DNA of 64,000 nt from a virus. Both the position numbers and the translations under genes were made by a program. Shown here piece by piece: positions 10,701-64,000 of this stretch (position 1 is its first letter; each line of letters starts with the position of its first letter). A model generated the notes under the pieces. The model was not told the DNA's origin. It was given only the letters and a program-made list of their open reading frames with translations, and made no database searches. The DNA lies in the IMG/VR virus record IMGVR_UViG_3300025137_000016; one strand, given 5' to 3'.

Positions 10701-13280
10701 TCTTCTGCTGGTTCTGGTGAACAACTATTTGAATTATCTGCAAACGAAGGTGCATACGATGGTGTGTATGGTATTTCCTCAACTCCAACTGCTGCATCCT
10801 TTACACTAACTTCTGAGTTTCAGATTCCTAACAGAGTCATAACATTTGATGGAAATTCAAAAGTAAATAGTGGTACAGATAAAATTACACTAGGAACTTC
10901 ATCTCCATATGTTCCTCATAACTTATATCCAGGAGAGCAAGTCGCATATAGTAATGGTGGCAATACTGATGTTGGTGTATTTACTGATGTATCACAACTT
11001 TATGTTATTGCAAATAACTCAATTGATATTCAGTTAGCATCTTCTTATGCTTCTGCGATTGCAGGAACTGCACTTAACTTAACTGCTACAAGTGGTACTC
11101 ATACATTAACTACCAACTCTCTTGTAAAAATGTCAAGAGCTGATGGTAATGTGTCATTCGCTAATGGCGGAAACATGATTACAGGTACTACCACAACATT
11201 CTTAAAAGATTATAAGAGATTTGATAATATCTATGTTGTTGTGAATGACCTTATTCAAGCATTTATCGTTGATCAAGTTATGACTGATGAGAAAATGAAA
11301 ATTCAAGGAACATTCCCAGCTGCTGGTTCGGATGTTGAATACTTTAAAATTACTCAGCTATCACTACGACCTGATGGATTCGCACTACACAAATCATTTG
11401 ATGGTGGTGTAGATATTACTGCAGGAACTTCTCCTAACAGTAAGATCGTGAGACAGTCTCGTAAATACTTTAGATATCAGTCTGGTAAAGGTATTCAGAA
11501 CTCATTTGCGATTAACTTCTCACCTGCTAAAGTTTTAGCATCTCTAACTTATGCTTCAAGTGGTAATGTTGTCACAGCTATTACACAAGAACCACATAAC
11601 TTAGTTGTTGGTGATAGAATCACAATCGAGAGTGCTGAAGTGACATTGGGAGAAAACTTATATCTTGGTACATTCCAAGTAGCAAGTGTTCCTAATGCGA
11701 CAACTTATACTTACACTGCTGCTGGTACTATTACGCAAACTAAAGCTGCAGGATTCCCAGAATATTATAGAGAATCTTGGAACGACTCGTTTGTTAGAGC
11801 TGGTATGTTTGATGACCAAAATGGATTCTTCTATGAGTACGATGGTCAGAAACTATATTGTGTAAGACGTTCTTCTACTCTACAAATTTCTGGTAAGATT
11901 AACACTACTGCTAACTCTCAAGTTGTGACTGGTACTACTACCTCGTTCACTACTCAGTTGGCTGCAGGAGATAAAGTATCAATCAGGGGACAATCTTATC
12001 AGATTGTTGCTGTTGATTCCGATCAAAGAATGATTGTACAGCCTTCTTATAAAGGTGTATCTGCAAGTAATGTTAAGATTACAAAAACTATCGATGTTAA
12101 AGTAGCACAAGAAGACTGGAGTGTTGACCCATGTGATGGATTAGGTGATACTGGATTTAATCTAAATGTACACAAAATTCAAATGGGATATATTGACTAC
12201 TCTTGGTATGGTGCTGGTAAAATTAGATTCGGTTTCAAAGATAGAGATGGACACGTTCATTACAATCACGAATTTATTCACAATAACAGATTAAACGAAT
12301 CATACTTTAGATCAGGAAACTTACCTGGAAGATATGAAATTGAAAATGGTAATGCACCATCATCAGCTCCTACTCTATTCCACTTTGGTACTTCTATCAT
12401 TATGGATGGTTTATTTGACGATGATAAAGCGTATCTATTCTCAGCTAACTCTAAACCAATGGTGTTTAAAGCTGGTCAAACAGATACCTTTACTACTGAT
12501 GCAGTATCAACTTTCGATCTAATTACTCTAGACAATAAGCGAGTATATGTTTATGCTCTACCTTGTTCACAGGCAGAAGCATCAGCGATATCTGTGGGTC
12601 AGTTAATTAAAGATGCTGAGGGTAGATTGCCAGCTGACTTCTTAGCCTATGTTACACAGGTTATTGTATCTGGTTCAAATTCAAAAGTATTTACATCTTA
12701 TCCTGCTACTTCTAACGCACCTGAAACTTCTACTTATCCAAACATAACATCTGGTGTCACAATGACATATGGAGAGAATGCTTATGGTGCAGGGTCTGCG
12801 GATATGACTAGACCTCACCCACTAATTTCTATTAGATTAGCACCTTCAGTTGATTCAGGTTTAACAGGATCTATCGGTCAAAAAGAAATTGTAAACCGAA
12901 TGATCTTATCACTTAACAACGCAGGTGTAACAACAAACAAAGATGTTACAGCATTCTTTATCTTAAATGGACTACCATCCAAATTAGATTATCTAAATGT
13001 TGAAACCCCTGCTCTTTCACAATTAATTTCTCATGATACAGGTGATACGATTCAGCAAGGTACTGTGGTCTTCTCTCAAAAAGTTTCTTCAGGTTCATTG
13101 AACATTGACTTAACTGATTTGATTGATATGGGTAATAGTATTCTTGGTGGGGATTCAGTATTCCCTGCAGGACCTGACTTAATGACTCTGGCTGTGCAGC
13201 CTTCTGATACTTCAGATATTAGCTCTAGTTCAGCATTCATCGTATCAGGTAAGTTATCATGGAAAGAGTCACAAACATAA
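7785..13280 (+). CDS. Very large virion structural/fibre protein (1831 aa)
   Basis: DPVNKLRVSNPENLIDTDFEYG motif, repeated HGL..GD.(V/I) modules and RQSRKYFRYQSGKG, as in marine myovirus structural proteins. Confidence 0.8.
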   Translation: MAKKLIATGYTINASQNQITVPGIIQPVRLLLITDINLNKILYNFADPSTGLSNYSFNYTSDTTTFTTSLDLSAAGVLNSHGLQVFYETDVSKIGFSEAMLDPVNKLRVSNPENLIDTDFEYGLQSSKWETLQTVLNIPTIYSQSGDVPIEQLSAVTTTLNSKQVKVTTTANHGLTLGDPILVQGTTLNAADGFFLVSGLTNSFEFFYEMDTQAESSATISGSYTSVIPAKFFEGSNLNIDLTTTAIETNGADPSIMTVTTSQTHGLKAGTRVYLRQTVGPKNLRIADPTANSSTAPDGGPWVDTRATITTSTTVNATTAIGGGGAQEYPVVTWDWEGTYQLYLQSSMINTGSDRITWTSHGFADNAALLYQTQIRGQTNGGIVDGTVYYVNVVDANTIELYSDYQTLGSRMNLTSFDFTRGHPRLTLVYKIEGNNGNARYTAFYKRNLVEDRAFTNAQATQNTTNSQSFNMSITTSGYTPIKATLTRIYYNGNLNDSDETVAVSITARNYLGLGTGNYNVTVGGVGATSGNIYPNEDVTRCIYQQGSNFYLTINYTPTSSVIETDKAGTVTTDYQLSFYAETDELPTSMNTAHSGSDFAAGNNNFGLGGSQGSKLFAFTGRSTGASGGTSADNYANNNDQARFGTGILRQTGAATGSAVSGILTVNSSDSNNEVYSSNSTHVYYGFANELTSYRNTIYAPAHNFIDGNSAVINVTSYSTTNRFEFADSSGNNVPIANSQFNAVITVISADYFRLQVSESPNTDDITAFPESFVVATATPNTTYNSIYISNHKLTGGNLATYSTAGTQIGGLTGGANYTLQYLNDSRLLIKDPNLSSGSGSATTSAFGSTSNNATQSFTVDIETPLGITPSTATITQIGFRGDFRNNNEYVDLTFSDGDVYRVGATGGQDTNQFLIDESFGSKNISNLLSGSPKTISVTVSPSSQVNFAVGGMSNWWELRFGVSAASGDVILSSAGSGEQLFELSANEGAYDGVYGISSTPTAASFTLTSEFQIPNRVITFDGNSKVNSGTDKITLGTSSPYVPHNLYPGEQVAYSNGGNTDVGVFTDVSQLYVIANNSIDIQLASSYASAIAGTALNLTATSGTHTLTTNSLVKMSRADGNVSFANGGNMITGTTTTFLKDYKRFDNIYVVVNDLIQAFIVDQVMTDEKMKIQGTFPAAGSDVEYFKITQLSLRPDGFALHKSFDGGVDITAGTSPNSKIVRQSRKYFRYQSGKGIQNSFAINFSPAKVLASLTYASSGNVVTAITQEPHNLVVGDRITIESAEVTLGENLYLGTFQVASVPNATTYTYTAAGTITQTKAAGFPEYYRESWNDSFVRAGMFDDQNGFFYEYDGQKLYCVRRSSTLQISGKINTTANSQVVTGTTTSFTTQLAAGDKVSIRGQSYQIVAVDSDQRMIVQPSYKGVSASNVKITKTIDVKVAQEDWSVDPCDGLGDTGFNLNVHKIQMGYIDYSWYGAGKIRFGFKDRDGHVHYNHEFIHNNRLNESYFRSGNLPGRYEIENGNAPSSAPTLFHFGTSIIMDGLFDDDKAYLFSANSKPMVFKAGQTDTFTTDAVSTFDLITLDNKRVYVYALPCSQAEASAISVGQLIKDAEGRLPADFLAYVTQVIVSGSNSKVFTSYPATSNAPETSTYPNITSGVTMTYGENAYGAGSADMTRPHPLISIRLAPSVDSGLTGSIGQKEIVNRMILSLNNAGVTTNKDVTAFFILNGLPSKLDYLNVETPALSQLISHDTGDTIQQGTVVFSQKVSSGSLNIDLTDLIDMGNSILGGDSVFPAGPDLMTLAVQPSDTSDISSSSAFIVSGKLSWKESQT

Positions 13281-44765: not shown

Positions 44766-45950
44766 ATGACAAACTTATCAAAAGAAACTCTGTTCTTAGA
44801 AAAGGCATACGAGCTTTTTCCAGAGGTAGCTGAAAGTCAGCAAATGACTCAGGCTCAAATCTTAGCTGTCCGTAAGGCAGGTATTAGAGTCCCAGGCAGT
44901 GCTTGGGAAAATCGTGTAGCTGGGGCAACTCCTGCACTTTATATTATCCCTGGAGGTAGTATAACAAAACCAGTCCGAGAAACTACTGAAGCAGTTGCAA
45001 CTCAAAAAGTTGTTCCACTAAAATCTTCAGCAGTATCTTCTACTGTAGATAAAAATGCTTTGGTTCCAGAAGTGGATTCAAACTATGTTCCTTTCGGGAA
45101 CTATCAAGATCTAAATCATATTGTTAAATCTAATATGTTTTATCCTTCATACATTGCTGGTCCAACTGGTAATGGTAAATCAACAACTATTGAGCAAATC
45201 TGTGCTAAGCAGAAGAAACCTCTTATTCGTGTAAACTTAAACACGATGACTGATGAAGATCAGTTGATTGGTTCTAAGACTCTAGTTGATGGTAATGTTG
45301 AGATCGTAGAAGGTCCAGTGGTTATCGCCATGAGATTTGGTATCCCACTACTTCTTGATGAGATCGATGCTGGTGGAGCAAATACTCTACTTTGCTTACA
45401 ACCTATCCTTGAGGGCAAACCATTTTATTTCAAATTAAAAAATGAAATCATTGTTCCTGCTAAAGGATTTAATATCTTTGCTACTGCTAATACTAAAGGT
45501 AAAGGCTCTGATGATGGTAGATATATTGGTACTAATGTTCTTAATGAAGCATTCCTTGAAAGGTTTGCTGTGACATTCAACCAACCATATCCTACTCAAA
45601 AAATTGAGTTGAAGATTGTTCAAAATCTTCTTAACCATTATGAGTGTAAAGATAGTGGGGACTTTGCTTCTAACTTAGTTAAATGGGCAGAAGTTGTTCG
45701 TAAGACTTTTGATGATGGTGGTTGTGATGAGAATATCACTACTCGTAGATTGACTCACATTGTGAGAGCTTTCTCGATCTTTAAGAAAGAAGCCAAAGCG
45801 ATAGAGCTTTGCTTGAATAGATTTGATGAAGTCACTAAGATGGCTTTCTTAGATCTTTATAATAAGATTGCTAGTGGGGAGGAAGAAGTTGCTTCCCCTA
45901 GCGAGGAAGATACTACTAGAAACCCATTTAGTGAAGGAGAACAATCATAA
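44766..45950 (+). CDS. MoxR/CobS-like AAA+ ATPase
   Basis: GPTGNGKS, LLLDEID, ATANTKGKG and NEAFLERF motifs. Confidence 0.92.
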   Translation: MTNLSKETLFLEKAYELFPEVAESQQMTQAQILAVRKAGIRVPGSAWENRVAGATPALYIIPGGSITKPVRETTEAVATQKVVPLKSSAVSSTVDKNALVPEVDSNYVPFGNYQDLNHIVKSNMFYPSYIAGPTGNGKSTTIEQICAKQKKPLIRVNLNTMTDEDQLIGSKTLVDGNVEIVEGPVVIAMRFGIPLLLDEIDAGGANTLLCLQPILEGKPFYFKLKNEIIVPAKGFNIFATANTKGKGSDDGRYIGTNVLNEAFLERFAVTFNQPYPTQKIELKIVQNLLNHYECKDSGDFASNLVKWAEVVRKTFDDGGCDENITTRRLTHIVRAFSIFKKEAKAIELCLNRFDEVTKMAFLDLYNKIASGEEEVASPSEEDTTRNPFSEGEQS

Positions 45951-46779: not shown

Positions 46780-47445
46780 ATGAAACTTTCGAAAGAAACA
46801 TTGAGCGTCCTTAAGAACTTTGCCACTATTAATGGCAATATTCTTATTAAAGCTGGGGATAGACTATCAACTATCTCAGCACAAAAAAATGTTATGGCAT
46901 CTACTACTGTTAAAGAACACTTTGACAGCGAGTTTGGTATCTATGACTTGAACGAGTTTTTAGGAGTGTACAGTTTATTTGCTGACGATCCAGAACTTAA
47001 TTTTGATGAGAAGTTTGTCACTGTGGCAAATGGTAAATCTAAAGTAAAATATTATGCAGCAGATGCATCGGTACTAGCATCCCCAACTAAAGATGCTTTG
47101 CCTGTTGATGAAGATGTTAAATTCGATCTTCCTCGTAGCATGTATGATATGATTATGAAGACTTCGTCAGTATTAAGATCTAATGATATCAGTATCATTG
47201 GTGCGGATGGTAAGTTGACTGTTGTTGTGGCTGATAAGAAGAATGCTACTTCTAACTCTTGGGATGCAATCCTTGGCGATACTGATAAGAATTTTAAAGT
47301 TAATTTCAGGATTGATAATTTTAAGATGTTAGATGGTGATTACGAAGTGACTATTTCTAAGAAAAGAATTTCTAAGTTTGCTTCTAAGATGAATGACCTT
47401 ACATATTTCATCGCAGTTGAAGCTGACTCTACATTCGACTTTTAA
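46780..47445 (+). CDS. 45: Sliding clamp gp45
   Basis: MKLSKETLSVLKNFATIN, FGIYDLNEFL and YFIAVE motifs. Confidence 0.95.
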   Translation: MKLSKETLSVLKNFATINGNILIKAGDRLSTISAQKNVMASTTVKEHFDSEFGIYDLNEFLGVYSLFADDPELNFDEKFVTVANGKSKVKYYAADASVLASPTKDALPVDEDVKFDLPRSMYDMIMKTSSVLRSNDISIIGADGKLTVVVADKKNATSNSWDAILGDTDKNFKVNFRIDNFKMLDGDYEVTISKKRISKFASKMNDLTYFIAVEADSTFDF

Positions 47446-51433: not shown

Positions 51434-53917
51434 ATGAAGTTTTATACTAATGTACATCCTCATGGCAATCAATTACTAGTCCGATATGTTTCGGGTGGTA
51501 AAAGACGTGCTGAAAAGATACCTTTCAAGCCTAGTGTCTGGGTGACACGAGGGAAAGGCGAAACACCATACAAAACTCTCAAAGGGCATCCTGCCTATAA
51601 AGTCCAACAAGCCAGCATTAAAGACGCAAAAAACTTTGTACAGTCTTATGGCGATGTTATGGATGTTCATGGTCAAACTACATGGCATTATCAATATATG
51701 CATGACGAGTTTGATAAAGATATTGATTGGGACAAAGATCTAATTAAGATCTGGTCTATTGATATTGAAACTGAAGCTGAAGAGGGTTTCCCTAATATTG
51801 AAAGAGCAAATGAGAAACTTCTTTTAATTACCTTACAAGATAATCATACTAAAGAAACTGTCACTTTTGGCACCAAGCCATATACTGGCGATGCTACTCA
51901 ACATACTGATTGGCGATATGTATATTGTAGTGATGAGAAAGTTCTCTTTAATAAATTTCTAGATTACTGGATTGAAAACTATCCTGATGTTATTACTGGA
52001 TGGAACTCTCAGTTCTTTGACCTTGCTTATTTATGGAGAAGAATGTGTCACATAATTGGTGAAGACCATGCTCGTAGATTATCTCCCTGGAAAATAGTAC
52101 ATGAAAGGGAAATATTTGTAAAAGGTAATAAACAGTTCGCCATTGCTATCGCAGGTGTTGCTCAGCTAGATTATCTAGACCTCTACAAAAAATATACTTA
52201 TACTGCCCAGGAATCTTATCGTTTAGATAATATCGCATTCGTTGAACTTAATTCTAAGAAATTAGATCACAGTGAATATTCTACATTCTCTGACTTCTAT
52301 AAGATGGACTGGAATAAGTTTGTTGATTATAACATTCATGATGTTAGATTAGTTGATATGCTAGAAGATAAAATGAAACTGATTGAACTTCAGTTGACTA
52401 TGGCATATAATGCTAAGATTAATTATGATGATGTATTCTCGCAAGTTCGTATGTGGGATATGATTGTTCACAATTATCTAATGAAAGTAAATGTGGTCAT
52501 ACCACCCAAGTCCAGCCAAAATAAATCTACTAAGTTTGAAGGAGCATTCGTAAAAGATCCAATTGTAGGATTACATAAATGGGTGGCTTCCTTTGACTTA
52601 AACTCACTATATCCGCATTTAATTATGCAGTATAATATTTCCCCTGAAACATTACAACAAGAATCAGTTGAAAAGGGTGTCGAGCATTATCTTAAAAATC
52701 CTGCTGGAGAATCTGATTTTGCTGTTGCTGCAAATGGTTCGCAATATAGAAAAGACTTTAGAGGTGTGTTCCCATCTATTATGGAAGACTTCTATAATCA
52801 AAGAAAGATTGCTAAAAAAGAAATGCTTCAAGCACAGCAATTATATGAAAACGAAAATGATCCTAGACAATTAAAAGTTATCTCAAGTAAAAATAATTAT
52901 CAGATGGGAATGAAGATTGCTCTTAACTCTGCTTATGGTGCACTCGGCAATCAATACTTTAGATACTTTGATATTAAGATGGCTGAAGCTATTACTACTT
53001 CTGGGCAATTATCTATTCGTTGGATTCATGATAGAATGAATGAATATCTAAACAAGATAATTGGTACAAAAGATGAAGACTATATTATTGCTGTTGATAC
53101 AGATTCTATCTATGTGACCTTTGAGAAACTTGTTGATAAAGTTATGGGAGATAAACAAACTGACATAAATAAAACTATTAAGTTCTTAGATACAATATGT
53201 AATGAAAAATTCATGCCATATATAAATGAGCAATATGCTATTCTTGCTAAAAGACAAAATGCTTTTGCAAACAAGATGGTAATGGAAAGAGAAGTTCTAG
53301 CCGATAAAGGTTTATGGACTGCTAAGAAAAGATATGTTCTTTCAGTATATAACTCTGAAGGAGTATCTTATAAAAAACCTAAGATGAAGATTATGGGTTT
53401 AGAGATGATTAAATCTTCTACTCCTCATGCTGTTCGTGAATTATTAAAAGAGGTAATACCAACTGTTCTTCGTGGAACTCAATCTGAATTGTATGAGTTT
53501 ATCGAGAAAGCTAGAACTCATTTTAATTCACTTCCTGTTGAAGAGATTGCTTTTCCTAGATCGGTAAATGGTCTGAGCAACTATTATGATTCCTCTCAAA
53601 TATATCGCAAGGCAACTCCTATTCATGTTAGAGGTGCTTTACTTTATAATCATTATTTAAAAGAGAAGAATCTAAATCTTAGATATAATACTATTAAAGA
53701 GGGTGAAAAGATAAGATTCGTATATCTTAAAAAGCCCAATACAATGAGGGAAAATGTTATTTCCTTCCTGGATGAGATTCCTAAGGAATTTGATATCCAT
53801 AAATATGCTGACTATGACTTGATGTTTGAAAAGGTGTTTCTAGATCCTCTTGAAATACTAGTAAATTCGCTCAAATGGAAGGTCAAGGACACAGCTTCTT
53901 TAGAGGATTTCTTTTAG
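51434..53917 (+). CDS. 43: Family B DNA polymerase gp43
   Basis: DIETE exonuclease motif, SFDLNSLYPHL, KIALNSAYG and DTDS; C-terminal SLEDFF. Confidence 0.98.
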   Translation: MKFYTNVHPHGNQLLVRYVSGGKRRAEKIPFKPSVWVTRGKGETPYKTLKGHPAYKVQQASIKDAKNFVQSYGDVMDVHGQTTWHYQYMHDEFDKDIDWDKDLIKIWSIDIETEAEEGFPNIERANEKLLLITLQDNHTKETVTFGTKPYTGDATQHTDWRYVYCSDEKVLFNKFLDYWIENYPDVITGWNSQFFDLAYLWRRMCHIIGEDHARRLSPWKIVHEREIFVKGNKQFAIAIAGVAQLDYLDLYKKYTYTAQESYRLDNIAFVELNSKKLDHSEYSTFSDFYKMDWNKFVDYNIHDVRLVDMLEDKMKLIELQLTMAYNAKINYDDVFSQVRMWDMIVHNYLMKVNVVIPPKSSQNKSTKFEGAFVKDPIVGLHKWVASFDLNSLYPHLIMQYNISPETLQQESVEKGVEHYLKNPAGESDFAVAANGSQYRKDFRGVFPSIMEDFYNQRKIAKKEMLQAQQLYENENDPRQLKVISSKNNYQMGMKIALNSAYGALGNQYFRYFDIKMAEAITTSGQLSIRWIHDRMNEYLNKIIGTKDEDYIIAVDTDSIYVTFEKLVDKVMGDKQTDINKTIKFLDTICNEKFMPYINEQYAILAKRQNAFANKMVMEREVLADKGLWTAKKRYVLSVYNSEGVSYKKPKMKIMGLEMIKSSTPHAVRELLKEVIPTVLRGTQSELYEFIEKARTHFNSLPVEEIAFPRSVNGLSNYYDSSQIYRKATPIHVRGALLYNHYLKEKNLNLRYNTIKEGEKIRFVYLKKPNTMRENVISFLDEIPKEFDIHKYADYDLMFEKVFLDPLEILVNSLKWKVKDTASLEDFF

Positions 53918-56506: not shown

Positions 56507-57901
56507 ATGCGTATTGAAGAAACTATATTAAATAATCTATTACATAATGATGAATACTCACGCAAGGTGACACCATTCATCAAACCTGAATATTTTGAAG
56601 AACGCAATGAGAAGATTATGTTTGAAGAATATACTAAGTTATTCCTACAATATAATAATGTTCCTAATGCTGAAATGATTGCTAATGAAGTCTTCAATCG
56701 TAAAGACTTATATGATAATGATCATAAACTAATTCAGGATGCCATTCTTAAGATGAAAGAGCCAAATGATGTAAATGAAAACTGGCTCTATGATAAAACT
56801 GAAGATTGGTGTAAAGAACGAGCAGTATATAATACTGTAATGGATGCTATCAAAATTATTGATGGTCGTGATAAACAACATACCAAAGATGCTATTCCTA
56901 AAATGATGCAAGATGCTTTGGGTGTTTGCTTTGATACTTCTGTTGGTCATGATTATCTAGAAGACTCCGACTCTCGTTATGAGTTCTATCATAAAGTTGA
57001 AGAGAAAATTAAATTTGATATTGAATTATTGAATACTATTACCAGAGGTGGCTTGAGTAAAAAGACTCTTAATATTGCTATGGCTGGTACAGGTGTTGGT
57101 AAATCATTATTTATGTGTCATCATGCTGCATCAGTTTTGGGTGCTGGTATGAATGTTCTTTATATTACTATGGAGATGGCTGAAGAAAAAATCTCTGAAA
57201 GGATTGATGCTAACTTATTGAACTTGGGTATGAATGAAATTAAAGTCGTTGACCATGACATATTCAGTAAAAGAATTAATAAGATTAAAGATTCTAGTAA
57301 AGGTAAATTGATTGTAAAAGAATATCCTACAGGCTCTGCTCACTCTGGTCACTTCAGAGCATTACTTGAAGAACTTAAAATGAAAAAAGGTTTCAAGCCA
57401 GATATTATCTTTATTGATTATCTTAATATCTGTGCTTCACAAAGATTAAAGATGGGATCTAATGTAAACACTTATTCTTACATTAAATCTATTGCCGAAG
57501 AACTTAGAGGACTGGCAGTTGAATATAATTGTCCTCTCGTATCAGCTACCCAAACGACAAGAGGTGGCTTTAATAACACTGATGTTGGTCTAGAAGATAC
57601 TTCTGAATCTTTTGGTTTACCAGCGACTGCTGATTTAATGTTCGCGATTATTGCTAGTGAAGAACTAGACAATATGGGACAGTGGATGATTAAGCAACTG
57701 AAGAATAGATATTCAGATCCTAATTATTACAAGCGATTCGTAGTTGGTGTTGATAAGAATAAAATGCGATTATATGATGTAGAAGCATCTGCTCAATCAA
57801 ACATAATGGGATCAGGTCAAGAAAAAAAAGAAGATGATATCGCTGTGTTTGATAAGTCCGATGCTGGACAGCGATTAAATATGGAAGGATTTAAATTATG
57901 A
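56507..57901 (+). CDS. 41: Replicative helicase gp41
   Basis: AGTGVGKS, IDYLNIC, SATQTTR, SESFGLPATAD and KQLKNRY motifs. Confidence 0.97.
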   Translation: MRIEETILNNLLHNDEYSRKVTPFIKPEYFEERNEKIMFEEYTKLFLQYNNVPNAEMIANEVFNRKDLYDNDHKLIQDAILKMKEPNDVNENWLYDKTEDWCKERAVYNTVMDAIKIIDGRDKQHTKDAIPKMMQDALGVCFDTSVGHDYLEDSDSRYEFYHKVEEKIKFDIELLNTITRGGLSKKTLNIAMAGTGVGKSLFMCHHAASVLGAGMNVLYITMEMAEEKISERIDANLLNLGMNEIKVVDHDIFSKRINKIKDSSKGKLIVKEYPTGSAHSGHFRALLEELKMKKGFKPDIIFIDYLNICASQRLKMGSNVNTYSYIKSIAEELRGLAVEYNCPLVSATQTTRGGFNNTDVGLEDTSESFGLPATADLMFAIIASEELDNMGQWMIKQLKNRYSDPNYYKRFVVGVDKNKMRLYDVEASAQSNIMGSGQEKKEDDIAVFDKSDAGQRLNMEGFKL

Positions 57902-59199
57902 CAAAAGTGATAACAGCACCAAAGAAGTTTGAATGCGAAGATAAGCTAGGATTATTTGGTGATGAAAATGATTATGAATTATTATGTGATTGGGATTGCG
58001 ACTTTTATGCTCCCACTCCTATGGGTGAAGAAAACTCTGAAGCCAATATTATATTTAAGTTTAGAAAAAACTGGTTTACTCAAGACCAACAAGATAAAGC
58101 ATATAATGGTTTGCGTGAAGCAGCAGGTGCCACTGAGAATCGTGGACTCGCAGCAGGTAGTGAAAAAACAGTTGCTCTAGGAACTAGGGATTGGGTCACT
58201 AACTATCACAACGCATTAATACAATATTTTATGTCACCCTCAGCTACTCTTGATGGCTCGGATCCTGTTGAAGCAATTCAACTAGAGTATAAAGGTCGTG
58301 AGAAGATTGCTGATGACAGTCGTGGTAAAGTGTGGCTCGCACAAAAAGTAGCAGAAGAAGATTTCGTATTTGATAATTGGGTTGAAGAAATAAGAGGATT
58401 GCCTAGAGAGGAAATGGTTAAAGAAGCAACTAGAGTAAATGATAAATTGACCTCTACAACTTCTTATGCTAATTCAGTGTTCTCAGGTATCGCAGGATTC
58501 TTTGATAGATACCCTCGTATTCCTTTTGGTCGTCCTACAACTTTCACTAGAGATAATCCTGAGAAGTTTGAACAAGGATTCCCTTTCTTACAACAATTAT
58601 CTAAAGGTTTTGGTGAACTATTGCCAGTCAGGTATGGTAAACAACAGGAAGCATGTAATAAACTAGATAATAAATTTATTATTCCTGGAACTGTTTTCAC
58701 TACTGCTACTGTTAATAAAACATTTAGAACAGCATACCATCGAGACATGGGAGATCTAAATGAAGGATTCTCTAATCTTACAGTCGTATCAAATAATGGT
58801 AAATATTCTGGTGGGTACTTAATACTTCCTGAATATAAAGTTGCTATTAATATTCGTCCAGGAGATTTATTATTAATTAATAATCATGATGGAATACATG
58901 GTAATACACCAATGGTTATGGAAGATGAAAGTGCTGAAAGAATATCTTTCGTATGTTATTTCAGAGAGAAGATGTTAGAACTAGGAAGCTGGGATTATGA
59001 ACGAGCTCGTGAAGATTATGTTATTAATCGTAGAACTAATAAAGAACACGTCTTACAAAGACCATTATGGAATGGTATTAGTCCTGGGATGTGGGATGAG
59101 AAAGAATGGTATGACTTTCTTGAAGATAAACTAGGGAAAGATATTGTATCTAAGTACCACCCTGACAGTGAAGCTAGTTCTCTAGCAGACTTTTTTTAG
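57898..59199 (+). CDS. TET/JBP-family 2OG-Fe(II) dioxygenase
   Basis: FTTATVN..FRTAYHRD (HxD), GGYLILPEY, PGDLLL..HGNTP (H) and RISFVCYFREKM (R); ATGA overlap with gp41. Confidence 0.88.
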   Translation: MTKVITAPKKFECEDKLGLFGDENDYELLCDWDCDFYAPTPMGEENSEANIIFKFRKNWFTQDQQDKAYNGLREAAGATENRGLAAGSEKTVALGTRDWVTNYHNALIQYFMSPSATLDGSDPVEAIQLEYKGREKIADDSRGKVWLAQKVAEEDFVFDNWVEEIRGLPREEMVKEATRVNDKLTSTTSYANSVFSGIAGFFDRYPRIPFGRPTTFTRDNPEKFEQGFPFLQQLSKGFGELLPVRYGKQQEACNKLDNKFIIPGTVFTTATVNKTFRTAYHRDMGDLNEGFSNLTVVSNNGKYSGGYLILPEYKVAINIRPGDLLLINNHDGIHGNTPMVMEDESAERISFVCYFREKMLELGSWDYERAREDYVINRRTNKEHVLQRPLWNGISPGMWDEKEWYDFLEDKLGKDIVSKYHPDSEASSLADFF

Positions 59200-59200
59200 T

Positions 59201-59932
59201 ATGAATTATAAAATATTTAAAGACACCTATGTTCGTGAAGTAGATGGCAAAGCTCTAGGAGTTGATAAGGATATGGTGAACCAATGCCTATCTAATTATT
59301 CAAAGTTTGATAATCTTGATGGTGCCATAGTTATGGACTGGGGTATGAATATTGGTGCGTTTGGAAGAATGCTACTTGATACAAATATAAAACAATATAT
59401 TGGTGTAGAATGTCATCCTGAAAATTTTGAAGTATGTGAAAAGAATCTAGGGCATGATGAAAGATTTTGTTTAATTAATGCTGCAGTCACTACTCAAGAT
59501 ATTCCTGAGATAACTTTATATCTAACAGGAAGTAAACAAGAATTTTGTTCAGGCACTACTAATCCAAAAAGTAATGCTGCAAAGAACATGAGAAAAAACC
59601 AAGTCAAAGTTCCAACAGTACAAGCACAACAATTATTTGATATTTACCAACCAACACATTTAAAGTGTGATGTTGAAGGCGAAGAATATCGTATCTTTGA
59701 ACCAGATTGGTTTATTCCTGAAAGTATCAAACAGATGTCTTTAGAGTTTCACTGGTCAGATAGAATACTATCAGATTATGAAAGCAATCAACGAGCTAAA
59801 TTTATTGAGCAAGGTTTCACACCTTTACAAGAACAATTAAATTTAGTCCCAGGAGATAAGCAAGTAATGTTCTTGGGTGAAGAAGTTAAATACAGAAACA
59901 TATGGGGTATGGATACTCTATATAAACGATGA
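59201..59932 (+). CDS. FkbM-like SAM-dependent methyltransferase
   Basis: VMDWGMNIGAF, VECHPENF, NAAV and LKCDVEGEE motifs. Confidence 0.82.
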   Translation: MNYKIFKDTYVREVDGKALGVDKDMVNQCLSNYSKFDNLDGAIVMDWGMNIGAFGRMLLDTNIKQYIGVECHPENFEVCEKNLGHDERFCLINAAVTTQDIPEITLYLTGSKQEFCSGTTNPKSNAAKNMRKNQVKVPTVQAQQLFDIYQPTHLKCDVEGEEYRIFEPDWFIPESIKQMSLEFHWSDRILSDYESNQRAKFIEQGFTPLQEQLNLVPGDKQVMFLGEEVKYRNIWGMDTLYKR

Positions 59933-61113
59933 AGTATTTACACACAGATAATAAAGATAAAGAATATGTAGATTGGCGACTCCCTGAAAATAGGGAGAAA
60001 GGTTTTCTATTATGGTTAGATTGGCGACTAACTTATAATGACCTCGACCATTACATGACAGCCAACATATTTCGCGATGCTACTGGCGATAAATCCCCTA
60101 CAAAAAAACCTATGACTGAAGAACAGCGACTCTGGTACTGTTTAATCTTTGGTTGCACCTATCAAACAGAAATGGCTTGGGCGATATATTGGAACTTTCC
60201 AAATCTATTGGAAATTGATTTACAAGAATTAGAAGAATGGAATGTTGAGCATTTAGATAAACAAAGATATGCTCGTGATACAAAATATAATAAAGGTAGA
60301 ATTGCTGAACAAGTAAGATCTATGCAACAATTGATTATGCCCTATGGTTCTATTAAAGCATGGGTAGATAATCAATTAAGAGATAACCCAAGTGAATCCT
60401 TTTTTAATATGTATGAGGAAGCACAGAAGATACACAAGTATGGTAGAATGACTACATGGTTATTTTGTCAAGCATTAAAAGAAACAGCCGAAGTACCCTT
60501 AGAGCCTGACACAATGTTAGCTACTGACAAATCTAACTGGAGTGTTAGATCTGGTCTTTGTTATTTAAAAGGTTGGGATAATCTTATTGAAGCCAAAGGT
60601 GCGAAGCTCGGAAAAGATGATATGCTGAATGTGGCTGAAGCAGAAAAATATATTTTTGCCAAAGCTAAAGATAATGTTTCGCCAGAAAATTCTAAAGTGC
60701 TTACAAACTTTTTATTAGAATCCCACCTATGTCAATATAAGAAACTAATGCTTGGTGGCGATTATGGTGGGCACTCTTCAGGTGATCATTATTCTAGAGG
60801 AAGTTTTTTAAAAGAAAAATGGGAGGGTATAGTGAACTATGATGCGTTCTTTGAAGATGCTATTACTAAGCATCACCCACTCGTACAGAAAAAAAGGGAA
60901 AGTCTTGCCCTAAGAGATTTATGTAAGAAAACAGGTCAAATGATTAACCTTCATCAAGATTATGATTTTATGCCAGATATGTATAAGGAAACAGGAATGG
61001 ATCCTAACTGGTTCTATAACAAGGGTGCTTATGAGAAAGAAGCAGTCAAATGTATAGATGCGTATCAGCTAAAGATGAGTGAAGAGAAATTCGGCTTGGA
61101 GGTTTACTTTTAA
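59929..61113 (+). CDS. aGPT-PPlase2 / amino acid:DNA transferase-like protein (HhH glycosylase fold)
   Basis: EQRLWYCLIFG.TY, KIHKYGRMTTW, SVRSGL and LESHLCQYKK patterns; neighbours TET and kinase. Confidence 0.75.
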   Translation: MKYLHTDNKDKEYVDWRLPENREKGFLLWLDWRLTYNDLDHYMTANIFRDATGDKSPTKKPMTEEQRLWYCLIFGCTYQTEMAWAIYWNFPNLLEIDLQELEEWNVEHLDKQRYARDTKYNKGRIAEQVRSMQQLIMPYGSIKAWVDNQLRDNPSESFFNMYEEAQKIHKYGRMTTWLFCQALKETAEVPLEPDTMLATDKSNWSVRSGLCYLKGWDNLIEAKGAKLGKDDMLNVAEAEKYIFAKAKDNVSPENSKVLTNFLLESHLCQYKKLMLGGDYGGHSSGDHYSRGSFLKEKWEGIVNYDAFFEDAITKHHPLVQKKRESLALRDLCKKTGQMINLHQDYDFMPDMYKETGMDPNWFYNKGAYEKEAVKCIDAYQLKMSEEKFGLEVYF

Positions 61114-61131
61114 GTTTTTCTAGTATAGAAT
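61103..61131 (+). promoter_or_regulatory. Sigma70-type promoter (inositol synthase-HAD-kinase)
   Basis: TTTACT-N17-TAGAAT. Confidence 0.8.
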
Positions 61132-61212
61132 TCTTATATATAAATGAAAAGTGTGCTAATCTGATCCAGTCAAATCCCACACTCTAATAAACTGATATAA
61201 AGGAGAAAAAAT

Positions 61213-62490
61213 ATGTCAAAAATTAAGGTCGCCATTATTGGCACTGGTAATTGTGCAAAGTCGGTAGTCGAAGGTGTGCAATACTATACTCAAAATCCCC
61301 AAGATAAAGTAGGATTAATGTATCCAGATATAGGAGGATACACTGTAGAAGATATCGAATTCGTTTGTGGTTTCGATGTTGATCCTAGAAAAGTCGGGAA
61401 ACCATTACAACAAGCATTAAGAGCAGCACCAAACTGTGCCATGCATCATGTATCAGAAATTGATGATACTTGTATAGCAAAAGACAGTATGGTATATTCT
61501 AGTCCAGAACTAGATGGAGTTGCTTCACACATGCTTGACTATCCAGAAGCAGTATCATTTAGAACAGGAGCAGAAACTGCTTTATCTAAAAAACAAGTTG
61601 CTCATACTTTAAACTTCCACAAGGTTGATGTTATTATTAACTATCTTCCAGTTGGTTCTGAAAAAGCAACAGAGTTTTATATAGACGCAGCAGTAATGGC
61701 TGGTGTTCATTTTGTAAACTGTATTCCAACTCTTATTGAAACTGAAAAGACTAAAGTCATAGAACAGAAGTTCATTGATGCTGGTCTTACTATTGTCGGA
61801 TCTGATATGAGATCTGCATGGGGTGCTTCTAGATTATCTGAAGTATTACAGGGAGCGATGTTAGATTCTGGTCTACAAGTGACGCAACATATTCAAATGA
61901 ATATGGCAGCAGGATCTACACAAGGTCAAGAAACTATTAGAACAGGAAGAACAGCAAATACTGACTTCTTAAATATGGCTTATAAAGAAAGATTAAAATC
62001 TAAACATATTTCTAAAGAGAATGTTTTAAAAGGTCAGAATCTAGTTAGAGATGAATCTATCGCAGGTATGACTTTGTATGCTGGTCCAAGTTTAACAGTA
62101 TTCCAAAAACCTGGAGGAGAATATGTTGGCTCTGATAATAAGATTGCCAATTTAGATATAGTCGCCTATGGTTTTGGTGGGGCAAGGTATGAATTATCTG
62201 CAAGGATGTCAGTACAAGATTCGCCAAACTCTGGAGGTGTAGTTGTATCAGCTATTCGTTTCTGTAAGGTTGCTTCTGAAATGCAAGTAGTTGGATTCTT
62301 AAGAGGTCCATCAGCTTGGACGCAAAAGACTCCACCTGTACAATTAAAAACAGAAGATGCTAAGTTTGAATGTGATGCATTAGCTAGACGTGAACTTACT
62401 AAGATGACTGAACCACAGTTAGTTGTAAACAAACCAAAAGCAAAAGATCTAGCATATACATATCAAAAAGGTGAAACTGATTATGAATAG
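61213..62490 (+). CDS. ino1: myo-inositol-1-phosphate synthase family protein (divergent active site)
   Basis: VAIIGTGNCA, FDVDPRKVG, NYLPVGS, FVNCIP, NTDFLNM and DSPNSGG motifs. Confidence 0.9.
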   Translation: MSKIKVAIIGTGNCAKSVVEGVQYYTQNPQDKVGLMYPDIGGYTVEDIEFVCGFDVDPRKVGKPLQQALRAAPNCAMHHVSEIDDTCIAKDSMVYSSPELDGVASHMLDYPEAVSFRTGAETALSKKQVAHTLNFHKVDVIINYLPVGSEKATEFYIDAAVMAGVHFVNCIPTLIETEKTKVIEQKFIDAGLTIVGSDMRSAWGASRLSEVLQGAMLDSGLQVTQHIQMNMAAGSTQGQETIRTGRTANTDFLNMAYKERLKSKHISKENVLKGQNLVRDESIAGMTLYAGPSLTVFQKPGGEYVGSDNKIANLDIVAYGFGGARYELSARMSVQDSPNSGGVVVSAIRFCKVASEMQVVGFLRGPSAWTQKTPPVQLKTEDAKFECDALARRELTKMTEPQLVVNKPKAKDLAYTYQKGETDYE

Positions 62491-62893
62491 AAGAATCAAT
62501 ACTTTTGATATTGATGGTGTTATCTATATGGGTAAGCACGATGGTGTTTATCCAGGAAAAAGTGATGTCATTATTACAGGTAGATCTATAGATGAGTGGG
62601 ATGAAACTACTGCTATGCTACAAGCAAAAGGCATTAAGAATGAAGTCTTTATGAATCCAGCAAGGTTTGAAAATAAAACTAGACAAGGTTCTGGTATTCA
62701 TAAAGGCAACATTATAAAAATGTTAAGAGTTCAAAGAGAGATAGAAATAGGAATACATTTTGATGACGATCCTATACAAATAAAAGAGATCGAAAGAATA
62801 AATCCTGATATCACATGTGTACTATTATCCCATGAATTAGTGGATAAAGAAAACTGTAGACATGTAAACTTCTTTGAGTCTGGAGGAGAATAA
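62483..62893 (+). CDS. Cap-less HAD-family phosphatase
   Basis: FDIDGV, IITGRS, K and HFDDD motifs. Confidence 0.82.
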   Translation: MNRRINTFDIDGVIYMGKHDGVYPGKSDVIITGRSIDEWDETTAMLQAKGIKNEVFMNPARFENKTRQGSGIHKGNIIKMLRVQREIEIGIHFDDDPIQIKEIERINPDITCVLLSHELVDKENCRHVNFFESGGE

Positions 62894-63468
62894 TGATTAT
62901 AGCAATTGGTGGAGAACCAGCAACAGGTAAATCTACATTGATGAAACAATGGATGAAAGATTATACTTGGGATGATGTCAAGTGTACAGATCTATTATAT
63001 GGTATGCACTGTCAAGAGCTGAATACTATTGTTCTCGGAAAAGACTATTTCAATGAAGAACAGATGTTCTGTGGTACTGATAGACTATCAATGGCAGTAC
63101 AACCTAAAGCCATTGAGTGGTTTAAAACCTCATACAAGCCATCTGGGGTTAATATCGTATTTGAGGGAGATAGGTTGTTTAGTGCTTCATTTCTTGGCGA
63201 AATGACCTCTCAGGGACACGATATACGCATCATTTACATAAAGGCAGACCAAAGTACCCTAGACGAAAGACATGTCTCCAGGAACGATAATCAGGACGAT
63301 AAGTTCCTAAAATCAAGGAAAACCAAGCTATCTAACATATTATCCAACTTCGAGCTTATGCCCTACATTGAAGAGTTTACAAATAATACAATTGAAGATC
63401 AGTCGGTCTTAGTGGAATTAATCTTAAAGGAACTAAATAGTAGTGATGGCAAAATGGTACAGGGATAA
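62893..63468 (+). CDS. P-loop kinase of the DNA-base hypermodification type (5-hmU DNA kinase-like)
   Basis: GGEPATGKST, GTDRLSMAVQP and FEGDRLF motifs. Confidence 0.78.
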   Translation: MIIAIGGEPATGKSTLMKQWMKDYTWDDVKCTDLLYGMHCQELNTIVLGKDYFNEEQMFCGTDRLSMAVQPKAIEWFKTSYKPSGVNIVFEGDRLFSASFLGEMTSQGHDIRIIYIKADQSTLDERHVSRNDNQDDKFLKSRKTKLSNILSNFELMPYIEEFTNNTIEDQSVLVELILKELNSSDGKMVQG

Positions 63469-64000
63469 GGCAACCATTTCAGTACGAGGTGGCGATGCTC
63501 CAACTAGAAAACTCATAAGAGAGATGGCACACTATTGTGCTAAAAAACTTATGACTGTTCAACTCCGAACTCAAGTCACAATAAATTTCGTAATTACAAA
63601 AGACCTTTACTTAACTGAAAAGGTCCAAGGACTATCTTGGATTGATTGCGAAGAATATCGTCCAAAGAAATTTAAAATACAAGTAGAACACGAATCCAAA
63701 TTAAGACCTTTATTAGAAACTGTAGCACATGAGATGGTACATATAAAACAATGGGCATCTGGTGATATGTATGAATATTCAGATGGTAATAGAACTCGCT
63801 ACAAAAAGAAACAATATAATAATCAAAAAATAGATTATTGGGATTCGCCATGGGAAGTAGAAGCACATGGTAAAGAGGTTGGTCTATTTGTTCGTTTTTG
63901 TGAAGATGAGGGTTATAAAGATGAGAAGTGGGCAAAGGTCGATTTCTTAAAACCTGAATATGCAAAAAGAATCGCAAAACATATAAAAGCAAAAAGAAAA
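63446..64000 (+). CDS. SprT-like HEXXH zinc metallopeptidase, 3'-truncated (not in ORF track)
   Basis: My translation gives ...ETVAHEMVHIKQ...DYWDSPWEVEA..., open to the window end; CTAAATA at 63433. Confidence 0.8.
   Translation, partial: MAKWYRDKATISVRGGDAPTRKLIREMAHYCAKKLMTVQLRTQVTINFVITKDLYLTEKVQGLSWIDCEEYRPKKFKIQVEHESKLRPLLETVAHEMVHIKQWASGDMYEYSDGNRTRYKKKQYNNQKIDYWDSPWEVEAHGKEVGLFVRFCEDEGYKDEKWAKVDFLKPEYAKRIAKHIKAKRK

Follow-up and report, generated by a model that had tools for sequence, protein, structure and literature searches.

Why would a phage place genes for making a cyclitol among genes for modifying the thymine of its DNA? The window analyzed here, 64,000 nucleotides from an uncultured marine T4-like phage, contains genes for a TET/JBP-family dioxygenase, a P-loop kinase and an ADDT transferase, together with a MIPS-family synthase, a HAD phosphatase and an FkbM-family methyltransferase (Table 1). 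The first three represent a published kind of thymine hypermodification, contigs with TET, a 5-hmdU DNA kinase and aGPT-Pplase2 having been described by Lee et al. (2021; PMC8989533), and what is new is the MIPS-HAD pair. The presence of this two-gene inositol-making kit within a set of thymine-modification genes points to an inositol-bearing DNA base. On balance, we lean toward a reading in which the cluster would carry out post-replicative thymine hypermodification, placing a phage-made cyclitol, possibly O-methylated, on 5-hydroxymethyluracil. Domain identities, intact catalytic residues and conserved gene linkage are established here, and from these we infer the steps of the pathway.

Table 1. 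Genes of the modification cluster and of the replication module in the 64,000-nucleotide window
Feature	Position	Strand	Evidence
gp45-type sliding clamp	46780..47445	+	phrog_223 5.8e-71
gp43 DNA polymerase	51434..53917	+	phrog_262 E 0
gp41-type DnaB replicative helicase	56507..57901	+	PF03796 2.1e-17; phrog_19 8.8e-127
TET/JBP-family 5-methylpyrimidine dioxygenase, 433 aa	57898..59199	+	PF12851 1.6e-21, residues 207-357
FkbM-family SAM-dependent O-methyltransferase, 243 aa	59201..59932	+	PF05050 1.2e-6; TIGR01444
ADDT/AADT (formerly aGPT-Pplase2), 394 aa	59929..61113	+	PF18724 5.6e-20
MIPS-family NAD-dependent cyclitol-phosphate synthase, 425 aa	61213..62490	+	PF01658 1.5e-9; 1gr0 2e-53
Minimal capless HAD phosphatase, 140 aa	62471..62893	+	four HAD motifs; HAD fold
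P-loop kinase, Ploopntkinase3 family, 191 aa	62893..63468	+	PF18751 6.3e-9
SprT-like zincin candidate	63443..64000, cut by window end	+	HEMVH motif

Results

A conserved gene cluster behind the replicative helicase

A preliminary description of this DNA had reported six contiguous, mostly overlapping genes behind the gp41 helicase, and all six are open reading frames on the plus strand at the positions given in Table 1. The helicase gene lies upstream of TET, its stop overlapping the TET start by 4 nt; next, TET and FkbM are 1 nt apart, FkbM and ADDT overlap by 4 nt, ADDT and MIPS are 99 nt apart, MIPS and HAD overlap by 20 nt, and HAD and the kinase overlap by 1 nt. Since the same six-gene order recurs in 13 independent viral contigs, with protein identities of 73–95%, it is not a product of chance. 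The six domain calls of the preliminary description were upheld by profile matches or, for the HAD protein, by motifs and fold, and each of the six proteins retains its catalytic motifs. Profile searches also agreed with it that the cluster contains no PLP, radical-SAM or glycosyltransferase gene, and they revealed none of the flavin or acetyltransferase finishing enzymes of amino-acid pathways. No GT1 or GT2 gene is present in the 131-kb and 117-kb contigs of close relatives. A CobS-like gene occurs in the 64-kb window.

Enzymes predicted to act on thymine

The dioxygenase matches PF12851 at 76.6 bits (cut-off 34.9), and H281-x-D283, H334 and R348 are invariant among 11 homologues; by motif, H281, D283 and H334 are the predicted Fe(II) ligands and R348 the predicted 2-oxoglutarate-binding arginine. 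An extra N-terminal region of ~200 amino acids precedes its Tet_JBP domain. We predict that this protein acts on thymine in DNA as a dioxygenase, an activity demonstrated for phage T-dioxygenases (O'Toole et al., 2026; PMC13229309). The earlier suggestion that TET replaces a nucleotide-level hydroxymethylase is supported by the 131-kb and 117-kb contigs of close relatives (65–73% complete), which contain neither a thymidylate-synthase-family gene nor a PF00145 match for a C5-methyltransferase; tblastn found no C5-methyltransferase in the window either. Because these two contigs also have no match to ParB_N, the domain expected of a neighboring ParB homologue, we rejected assignment of the dioxygenase to the ParB-dependent 5mYOX subclass.

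The ADDT scores 72.5 bits against PF18724 (cut-off 26.2). Its E264 and C268 are invariant in an alignment of eight homologues that includes a ViI-type Kuttervirus protein (Marshall_13) and those of phages Cr30 and RP13 (alignment A1), as well as across 17 unique sequences; the active-site Cys and Glu of ADDTs are essential (PMC8989533). It is predicted to carry out the group-transfer step onto phosphorylated 5-hydroxymethyluracil (5hmU). All 24 contigs retrieved through the ADDT (34–89% identity) have MIPS next door wherever the contig reaches.

In the kinase, Walker A residues G7-G12-K13-T15 are invariant among homologues, and relatives adjoin TET homologues in Cr30, Microbacterium phages and Mycobacterium phages. 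From this context, we predict that it is a kinase of 5hmU in DNA. It matches Ploopntkinase3 only, and PF18723, the HMUDK helical domain, is also absent from the 131-kb relative; membership of the 5-HMUDK group (M6, ViI, SP10 type) was rejected because this domain is missing.

Clamp-docking tails separate two groups of enzymes

With the gp43 C-terminal tail TASLEDFF as the reference for a clamp-docking motif, only three window ORFs of at least 80 amino acids, gp43 among them, end in L-x-x-[FY]-[FLMIV]. The TET tail, ASSLADFF, resembles that of the polymerase and is present in 17 of 18 TET homologues; the ADDT ends in FGLEVYF, with a tail in 14 of 26 homologues. The presumed docking site is the gp45-type clamp. 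Clamp-type tails occur on gp43, TET, ADDT, the HMUDK-like kinase, the c3 protein and a C5-MT-like protein (148/157 tails), and on 0/83 MIPS, 0/76 HAD and 0/16 FkbM proteins. Judged from these sequences, the tail distribution divides DNA-level steps from small-molecule steps. The window's P-loop kinase lacks such a tail, which we count against our main reading.

Enzymes predicted to make and decorate a cyclitol

Residues 3–386 of the synthase match Mycobacterium tuberculosis Ino1 (1gr0) over its full length at 2e-53, compared with 4.8e-28 for 6k96, a five-membered cyclitol-phosphate synthase. Its D198, K264, K268, K310, D336 and K372 are invariant among 68 homologues, and the synthase retains the residues aligned to D197, K248, K252, K284, D310 and K346 of the M. 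tuberculosis enzyme, which we take to be catalytic. From its sequence, we place it in the MIPS family but stop short of calling it a proven Ino1 equivalent. Since its TIGR03450 score of 211 bits falls below the 638-bit NCBIfam equivalog cut-off, and its family has a 15-residue insertion and an invariant Arg at the position of M. tuberculosis Ino1 Lys199, the product could be another cyclitol. Some relatives additionally carry a gene for an NAD-dependent epimerase or a cytidylyltransferase.

HAD motifs I–IV of the phosphatase (D13-x-D15, T36, K78, D99-D100) are invariant in 60 homologues. No Pfam HAD model matches the protein at E up to 1, and its sole sequence-family match is phrog_415, a polynucleotide kinase. 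The structure model (pLDDT 88.8) has no cap domain. Its best fold match is the T4 Pnkp 3′-phosphatase (5uj0_B; Z 12.1, rmsd 2.4, 110 aligned), equaled by 4xrp_A (Z 12.1), and the top three are all polynucleotide 3′-phosphatase domains, two from T4 Pnkp (Z 12.1 and 11.6) and one from Pnkp1 (Z 12.1). Next comes the phospholipid-binding C-terminal domain of Nir2 (Z 10.9), and no other HAD exceeds 9.4. Given its nearest fold, the modeled HAD may act on a DNA-bound phosphate. Across the superfamily, macromolecular substrates are frequent among capless HADs.

The FkbM protein exceeds the cut-offs of PF05050 (29.2 versus 22.7 bits) and TIGR01444 (39.1 versus 37.7 bits), and its SAM-binding motif V44-D46-G48-N50-G52 is invariant among homologues. 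It is an optional accessory of the cluster, present in TET-type clusters and in two gp42-type clusters, L050 and L076. Its presence in both hydroxymethyluracil-type and hydroxymethylcytosine-type clusters fits a target on the cyclitol that they would share and not on the base; since it has no clamp tail of the kind seen on DNA-acting enzymes, the free cyclitol may be its substrate.

The MIPS-HAD pair travels with DNA-modification genes

MIPS and HAD lie side by side in 74 of the 80 related viral loci and in all 28 that are well flanked. The preliminary description had named failure of the synthase to co-occur with TET, kinase and transferase in related phages as a result that would count against it, and the loci surveyed speak in its favor instead. 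Of the well-flanked loci, 26 have a base kinase within 6 kb and 27 have a transferase candidate; hydroxymethylpyrimidine kinases or transferases are nearby in 20 of 22 MIPS lineages. The kinase proved to be tied to the synthase/HAD sub-operon, as had been proposed: HAD and kinase overlap or are separated by at most 12 nt at 62/62 junctions, across two unrelated kinase families, with spacings of −4, −1 or +2 nt in 16 loci.

The neighbors fall into two main sets: TET, ADDT and P-loop kinase, or a gp42-type dCMP hydroxymethylase accompanied by an HMUDK-like kinase and a different transferase candidate. A gp42 orthologue that retains Asp179 is present in most MIPS-HAD relatives. The commonest architecture has a transferase candidate with no relationship to ADDT (hhalign probability <1%), and we assume that the two share a mechanism. 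In two further lineages, the Stenotrophomonas phage Moby type and L048, MIPS-HAD lies in a 7-deazaguanine cluster containing no ADDT, kinase or hydroxymethylase. Its occurrence in hydroxymethylcytosine and 7-deazaguanine clusters as well means that the pair is not linked exclusively to ADDT chemistry. In the MIPS tree, TET-type and gp42-type clusters interleave with 96–100% support, which argues that a constant donor cassette has been recombined with alternative acceptor-activating modules. This recombination has been among DNA-modification clusters only.

Discussion

How might these enzymes work together? The TET/JBP dioxygenase, probably held on the gp45 clamp by its polymerase-like tail, would oxidize thymine in new DNA to 5hmU, and the P-loop kinase would phosphorylate the hydroxymethyl group. 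Cys268 of the ADDT, helped by Glu264, would attack C6 and expel the phosphate to leave an exocyclic methylene, to which a cyclitol hydroxyl, the proposed nucleophile, could add to give an inositol ether of thymine. The MIPS homologue would derive the cyclitol from hexose phosphate and the HAD phosphatase would free it; the FkbM enzyme would O-methylate it, probably before transfer. We found no paper in the literature describing an inositol- or cyclitol-bearing DNA base of this kind.

Some findings speak against such an ether. As a nucleophile, a secondary hydroxyl of a cyclitol is weaker than the known ADDT donors, MIPS-HAD is found without ADDT and kinase in the Moby-type and L048 clusters, the commonest architecture has a transferase candidate unlike ADDT, the synthase scores far below the Ino1 equivalog cut-off, and the nearest HAD folds are nucleic-acid-end phosphatases. 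It is conceivable, if unlikely, that the ADDT adds an ordinary amino acid and that MIPS-HAD is a separate inositol cassette, lodged in a region of nucleotide metabolism and serving host metabolism, an osmolyte or virion/surface glycans. The 7-deazaguanine clusters are compatible with this view, as is the fact that all characterized ADDTs use amino acids or a polyamine, putrescine (PMC8989533); auxiliary metabolic genes are many in T4-like marine phages, and the CobS-like gene of the window could be cited in the same vein. However, none of the PLP, radical-SAM, flavin or acetyltransferase finishing enzymes is present, translational coupling of HAD to kinase is kept across unrelated kinase families, MIPS accompanies ADDT in 24/24 contigs, the cassette has moved only among DNA-modification clusters and every well-flanked locus has DNA-modification neighbors. 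A slightly smaller chance attaches to a different order of steps, in which the ADDT transfers a cyclitol phosphate (e.g., inositol-3-phosphate) and the Pnkp-like HAD dephosphorylates the adduct on DNA. The three top folds, the phrog_415 match and the missing cap domain all favor this order, which also accords with the frequent action of capless HADs on macromolecules, and a charged phosphate would mimic the carboxylate handle of the known amino-acid donors. Yet the HAD lacks the tail that marks DNA-acting enzymes (0/76), its likeness to Pnkp may merely reflect a T4-lineage origin of the domain, and capless HADs that dephosphorylate free sugar phosphates, such as KdsC, are among its weaker fold matches.

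The identity of the cyclitol and that of the base also bear on our preferred reading of a cyclitol-decorated thymine. That the MIPS homologue makes some other carbocycle or rearranged sugar phosphate (such as an inositol isomer other than myo-inositol, or a cyclitol phosphate with a five-membered ring), which then forms the adduct, seems improbable. The sub-equivalog score, the 6k96 match, the invariant Lys-to-Arg change with the 15-residue insertion, and the epimerase or cytidylyltransferase of some relatives would suit such a product, but the synthase resembles bona fide Ino1 far more closely than it does the enzyme that makes a five-membered ring, and it retains all of the aligned Asp and Lys positions. 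We give very little credence to a pathway that starts from 5-methylcytosine and decorates cytosine. Some phage TET enzymes do oxidize 5mC (PMC13229309), and most MIPS-HAD clusters elsewhere rest on hydroxymethylcytosine from a gp42-type enzyme; against this, no C5-methyltransferase was found in the window or in the 131-kb and 117-kb contigs of its relatives, and the partners ADDT and Ploopntkinase3 belong to the published thymine-hypermodification set.

Among known systems, the 5-NeOmdU pathway of phage ViI uses kinases gp67 and gp243, the serine:DNA transferase gp247 and a PLP decarboxylase, with the serine hydroxyl providing a precedent for an oxygen nucleophile (PMC8989533). In the predicted pathway, as in that of ViI, a kinase would activate 5hmU in DNA, an ADDT with essential Cys and Glu would act next and the donor would attack through oxygen; the window ADDT keeps the Glu-x3-Cys of the ViI-type homologue. 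However, 5hmU would be made by TET on DNA rather than by a dUMP hydroxymethylase, the kinase is of the Ploopntkinase3 family and lacks the HMUDK helical domain, a PLP decarboxylase is missing, and a cyclitol synthase, phosphatase and O-methyltransferase take the place of amino-acid processing. The metavirome contigs encoding TET_JBP, 5-HMUDK and aGPT-Pplase2 (sequences 22–25 in Figure 2 of Lee et al., 2021) and the T-dioxygenases of O'Toole et al. (2026) share with the window a three-enzyme logic in which thymine would be oxidized after replication, with no C5-methyltransferase found nearby. Inositol genes are not mentioned in PMC8989533 or PMC13229309; in place of a ParB activator, for which the 131-kb and 117-kb relatives gave no match, the window TET carries a polymerase-like clamp tail and the extra N-terminal region of ~200 residues.

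Trypanosome base J, which is made by JBP1/2 and a glucosyltransferase, likewise arises from 5hmU that a TET/JBP enzyme generates in DNA and that then receives a polyol-type C6 group; the predicted unmethylated product would match the base J nucleoside in elemental formula. In contrast, the window cluster has no glycosyltransferase, nor do its 131-kb and 117-kb relatives have GT1 or GT2 genes; it would use kinase activation and Michael addition to form an ether, not a glycoside, and its donor would be carbocyclic inositol, not glucose. A base J-type pathway was rejected because it calls for a glycosyltransferase acting on 5hmU, and none was found in the cluster, nor any GT1 or GT2 gene in those relatives' contigs. 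The glucosyl-hydroxymethylcytosine system of T4 (gp42 plus α- and β-glucosyltransferases) shares the T4-like replication module and a hydroxymethylpyrimidine handle; the window, however, has neither gp42 nor a glucosyltransferase, and activation would be by phosphorylation, not by a nucleotide sugar.

Two cultured phages carry related sets. Caulobacter phage Cr30 encodes TET (45% identity), ADDT (28%), MIPS (40%), HAD (46%) and kinase (36%) within 9 kb, but the genes are scattered among small ORFs and adjoin the weakly glucosyltransferase-like gp122. Ralstonia phage RP13 encodes ADDT, an HMUDK kinase, MIPS (60% identity) and HAD, with a TS-like enzyme and the HMUDK instead of TET, and its DNA is reported to be modified heavily enough to hinder sequencing (PMC12686479), in keeping with our reading. 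We found no publication on the DNA chemistry of either phage.

Finally, a SprT-like zincin candidate overlaps the kinase stop by 26 nt. It has H96-E97-x-x-H100, belongs to phrog_10499, a PHROG of unknown function, and has an atlas feature score of 0.97 to clusters auto-named SprT-like; its Pfam SprT-like match is just E 0.1. Confined to close relatives of the window, it is a possible accessory of the cluster.

Results

Six genes behind the gp41 helicase

The preliminary description had placed six genes directly behind the gp41 helicase gene, and all six open reading frames (ORFs) were indeed found there on the plus strand. Since gp41 is itself preceded by genes for UvsX, gp43 polymerase, RegA, gp44/62 and gp45, the region is a T4-like phage replication module. 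Junctions within the cluster are overlaps or 1-nt gaps, the sole exception being a 99-nt gap 5′ of the synthase gene. As scans for promoters and terminators gave counts like those of shuffled sequence (34 versus 33.1 and 4 versus 3.4, respectively), sub-operon claims are based on the gene junctions only. Inside the gap, TATAAATG is present at 61139-61146, 67 nt upstream of the synthase ATG; it agrees at 7 of 8 positions with what we take to be the T4 late-promoter consensus, in a window where the generic promoter scan did no better than chance. Nucleotide searches of the phage collection, for close as well as remote matches, returned nothing.

Genes of the cluster and the evidence for their assignment
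Gene product	Coordinates	Strand	Evidence
Tet_JBP protein, dioxygenase	57898-59199	+	PF12851, 1.6e-21
FkbM methyltransferase	59201-59932	+	PF05050, 1.2e-6; TIGR01444, above cut-off
Amino-acid:DNA transferase (ADDT)	59929-61113	+	PF18724, 5.6e-20
Inositol-phosphate-synthase family	61213-62490	+	PF01658, 1.5e-9; 1gr0 (M. tuberculosis Ino1), 2e-53, residues 3-386
HAD protein, 140 aa	62471-62893	+	Four HAD motifs
Ploopntkinase3 P-loop kinase	62893-63468	+	6.3e-9

The dioxygenase retains H281-x-D283, H334 and R348; no match emerged when solved structures were searched with its sequence. In the ADDT, neither E264 nor C268 varies among the aligned homologues, which include a ViI-type Kuttervirus protein and those of phages Cr30 and RP13. 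M6 gp51 and ViI gp247 cannot do without a conserved Cys and the Glu that neighbours it (Lee et al., PMC8989533). The HAD ORF has no Pfam match even at E 1, and its four motifs (FDIDGV, ITGRS, a conserved Lys and FDDD) are all invariant in 60 homologues.

The synthase has kept the counterparts of Asp197, Lys248, Lys252, Lys284, Asp310 and Lys346 of M. tuberculosis Ino1, which we take to be catalytic. It scores 211 bits against an equivalog cut-off of 638 bits, carries a 15-residue insertion and has an invariant Arg where the M. tuberculosis enzyme has Lys199, and a solved relative, 6k96, yields a five-membered cyclitol phosphate. For these reasons, we describe its predicted product as a cyclitol phosphate, with inositol phosphate as the likeliest candidate.

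The synthase and HAD genes travel as a pair

Relatives of the synthase were found in 169 viral contigs of one collection, of which 80 (synthase identity 73-92%) were fetched and all their ORFs clustered. HAD directly follows synthase at 74 of the 80 loci, in most cases with its start codon overlapping the synthase stop, and at all 28 well-flanked loci (flanks of at least 4 kb on the upstream and 3 kb on the downstream side). HAD in turn runs directly into a kinase gene at 62/62 junctions, the kinases belonging to two unrelated families. The preliminary description was to be refuted if the synthase failed to co-occur with TET, kinase and transferase in related phages, and for kinase and transferase the outcome is in its favour: a base kinase lies within 6 kb at 26 of the 28 well-flanked loci and a transferase candidate at 27. 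In the reciprocal direction, for which we scanned contigs with the narrower of two ADDT alignments (the wider being too divergent), 24 contigs with ADDTs of 34-89% identity were recovered, and the synthase adjoins in every one that reaches far enough, including contigs in which it is just 46-48% identical.

The window's architecture accounts for only about a quarter of the 80 loci. The commonest order is DUF1599, a gp42-type dCMP hydroxymethylase, dCMP deaminase, synthase, HAD, kinase, a 336-aa protein (c3) and a C5-methyltransferase-like protein. Here the hydroxymethylase matches T4 gp42 (1b49, 1.9e-72) and retains Asp179, and the kinase bears the helical domain of 5-hmdU DNA kinases (HMUDKs). 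Since c3 and the HMUDK-like kinase (L072:12826-13836 and L084:11965-13035, in two related contigs) align with N-terminal and central segments of a single family, phrog_17781 (795 positions), they are evidently fused elsewhere; hhalign comparisons of c3 with ADDT, the C5-methyltransferase-like protein and Cr30 gp122 revealed no relation (probabilities <1%). In a third architecture, to which RP13 belongs, an HMUDK kinase and ADDT accompany the pair. FkbM genes are present within TET-type clusters, the window's kind, and within gp42-type ones, as expected if the target of FkbM is the shared cyclitol. Some clusters of both pathway types (among L038-L047 and L092-L093) carry a 139-aa cytidylyltransferase-like protein (PF01467, 4.8e-14) directly after the kinase, and some an extra NAD-dependent epimerase/dehydratase, a hint that the cyclitol may be CDP-activated or epimerised in those phages.

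In Stenotrophomonas phage Moby (MN095772.1, 28187-33601) and at one other locus, L048, the pair sits inside a 7-deazaguanine cluster, between FolE and QueC-DpdA-QueE. Neither genome has a hydroxymethylase, HMUDK kinase, ADDT or thymidylate-synthase-family gene, and a cyclitol-decorated deazaguanine is conceivable in such phages.

In a maximum-likelihood tree of the synthase the architectures are interleaved: a TET-type and a gp42-type locus form a sister pair (99/99), and two more TET-type loci are nested in a gp42-type clade (100/99 and 96/90), with the window's group separate. The pair thus appears to be a constant cassette that has been recombined with alternative modules for creating and activating the hydroxymethyl group. 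No other protein of the cluster is as well conserved as the synthase: at two loci (L064 and L068) its identity to the window's version is 74-76%, versus 62-64% for gp41 and 28-53% for the remaining enzymes of the pathway.

Polymerase-like tails on the expected DNA-acting enzymes

In T4 and RB69, the C-terminal tail of the polymerase docks on the gp45 clamp. The gp43 polymerase of the phages studied here ends in [ST]LEDFF, and we searched for C termini of the form L-x-x-[FY]-[FLMIV]. Among window ORFs of at least 80 aa, only three have such a tail: gp43 (51434-53917, TASLEDFF), the dioxygenase (ASSLADFF) and ADDT (FGLEVYF). When all loci are taken together, the tail occurs on 157 of 1377 complete ORFs, 148 of them in six families: gp43 (22/24), dioxygenase (17/18), ADDT (14/26), HMUDK-like kinase (35/44), c3 (36/40) and C5-methyltransferase-like protein (24/25). 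It is absent from synthase (0/83), HAD (0/76), FkbM (0/16), P-loop kinase (0/17), gp42 homologues (0/37) and dCMP deaminase (0/39). As judged from these sequences, the tail cleanly separates enzymes expected to act on DNA from those expected to act on small molecules. Prediction of a complex between the gp45 clamp and the last 50 residues of the dioxygenase scored 0.01, which counts neither way.

Discussion

The core of this pathway has precedent. Contigs that combine TET, 5-hmdU DNA kinase and aGPT-Pplase2 genes were described by Lee et al. (PMC8989533), who proposed that 5hmU forms in situ, and phage enzymes of the dioxygenase superfamily oxidise thymine in DNA, with O-methyltransferases, HAD proteins, kinases and amino-acid transferases among their neighbours (O'Toole et al., 2026, PMC13229309). 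As neither paper mentions inositol, we regard the three-enzyme core as known and the synthase-phosphatase pair as the new element. Our literature searches for an inositol-bearing DNA base returned incidental mentions of inositol only, and no publication on such a base.

What might the pair contribute? The comparative support for a predicted cyclitol module embedded in the modification cluster is strong, and we consider a cyclitol-bearing thymine the probable, if by no means assured, outcome. Among the 22 synthase lineages (at 90% identity), 20 accompany hydroxymethylpyrimidine enzymes and 2 accompany deazaguanine genes; that the pair has a role unrelated to DNA modification seems unlikely. In Cr30 and in phages of Microbacterium and Mycobacterium, TET homologues regularly have a member of the Ploopntkinase3 family next to them. 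A different carbocycle as the adduct appears improbable, and cytosine as the substrate would surprise us greatly. Contigs of close relatives (131 kb, 73% complete; 117 kb, 65% complete) contain no gene for a thymidylate-synthase-family protein, C5-methyltransferase, GT1 or GT2.

The order of steps is a separate question. Inositol phosphate could be transferred first and then dephosphorylated on DNA by the HAD protein, whose model (pLDDT 88.8) is a capless HAD domain. Its three best fold matches are polynucleotide 3′-phosphatase domains (T4 Pnkp, Z 12.1 and 11.6; Pnkp1, Z 12.1), followed by the Nir2 C-terminal domain (10.9) and all other HADs at 9.4 or below, which fits this order. However, the HAD protein has no clamp tail, which speaks against dephosphorylation on DNA, and we think a phosphate-first order slightly less likely even than a role outside DNA modification. 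The tail distribution favours a route in which free cyclitol would be methylated before transfer.

Some of the phage oxygenases described previously are active only with a ParB activator (O'Toole et al., 2026, PMC13229309). No ParB is encoded in the 131-kb and 117-kb contigs, and the tails suggest that clamp docking may take the place of this activator and how post-replicative modifying enzymes could reach double-stranded DNA without it.

One scheme, which we offer tentatively and think somewhat doubtful as a whole, is that marine T4-like phages swap part of their thymine for an O-methyl-inositol ether of 5-hydroxymethyluracil, built at the replication fork by a clamp-docked dioxygenase and transferase; in other phages the same phage-made cyclitol would act as a portable donor cassette and go onto hydroxymethylcytosine, perhaps also onto 7-deazaguanine. 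To our knowledge, DNA hypermodifications described so far attach sugars, amino acids or polyamines. If the scheme is true, this ether would be the first carbocyclic polyol on a DNA base, and a cyclitol would make for a chemically new class of natural DNA bases; its linkage should withstand glycosidases and many nucleases, and there could be effects on sequencing, restriction and defence evasion. The predicted nucleoside would be C16H24N2O11 ([M+H]+ about 421.145; about 435.161 for the O-methyl form expected of the window's type), and without the methyl group it would share its mass with the base J nucleoside. The gene pair is common (169 contigs, at least 22 lineages), so aquatic phages could widely carry the modification in their DNA. 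The question is open to direct test, since the gene set is present in two cultured phages, Cr30 and RP13. RP13 has the synthase (60% identity) together with ADDT, HMUDK and HAD, and its DNA is reported to be modified heavily enough to have hindered sequencing (PMC12686479).

Several further genes deserve comment. An ORF at 63443-64000 overlaps the kinase stop by 26 nt (full length in a related contig, L006:12246-12812), has an HEMVH zincin motif, resembles clusters auto-named SprT-like and is confined to the window's close relatives (10 loci). With a fold model of pLDDT 35.7 only and no match in a profile search of solved structures, the SprT-like assignment is weak. SprT and Spartan proteases remove DNA-protein crosslinks, and this protein might clear ADDT molecules stalled as a covalent Cys-C6 intermediate. 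A 446-aa gene further downstream in relatives matched no recognised family. Elsewhere in the window, a CobS-like gene, of a kind that marine T4-like phages typically carry as an auxiliary gene, lies at 44766-45950; its AAA product matches phrog_249 ('porphyrin biosynthesis') at 1.5e-101. The structural half contains two very long ORFs, one of 1831 aa at 7785-13280 and one of 1249 aa at 3-3752 that is open where the window begins. Finally, in the public Cr30 record (NC_025422.1), the P-loop kinase (51788-52333) is labelled 'terminase small subunit' and the dioxygenase (59353-60681) 'SNF2 DNA repair protein'; both labels look wrong.
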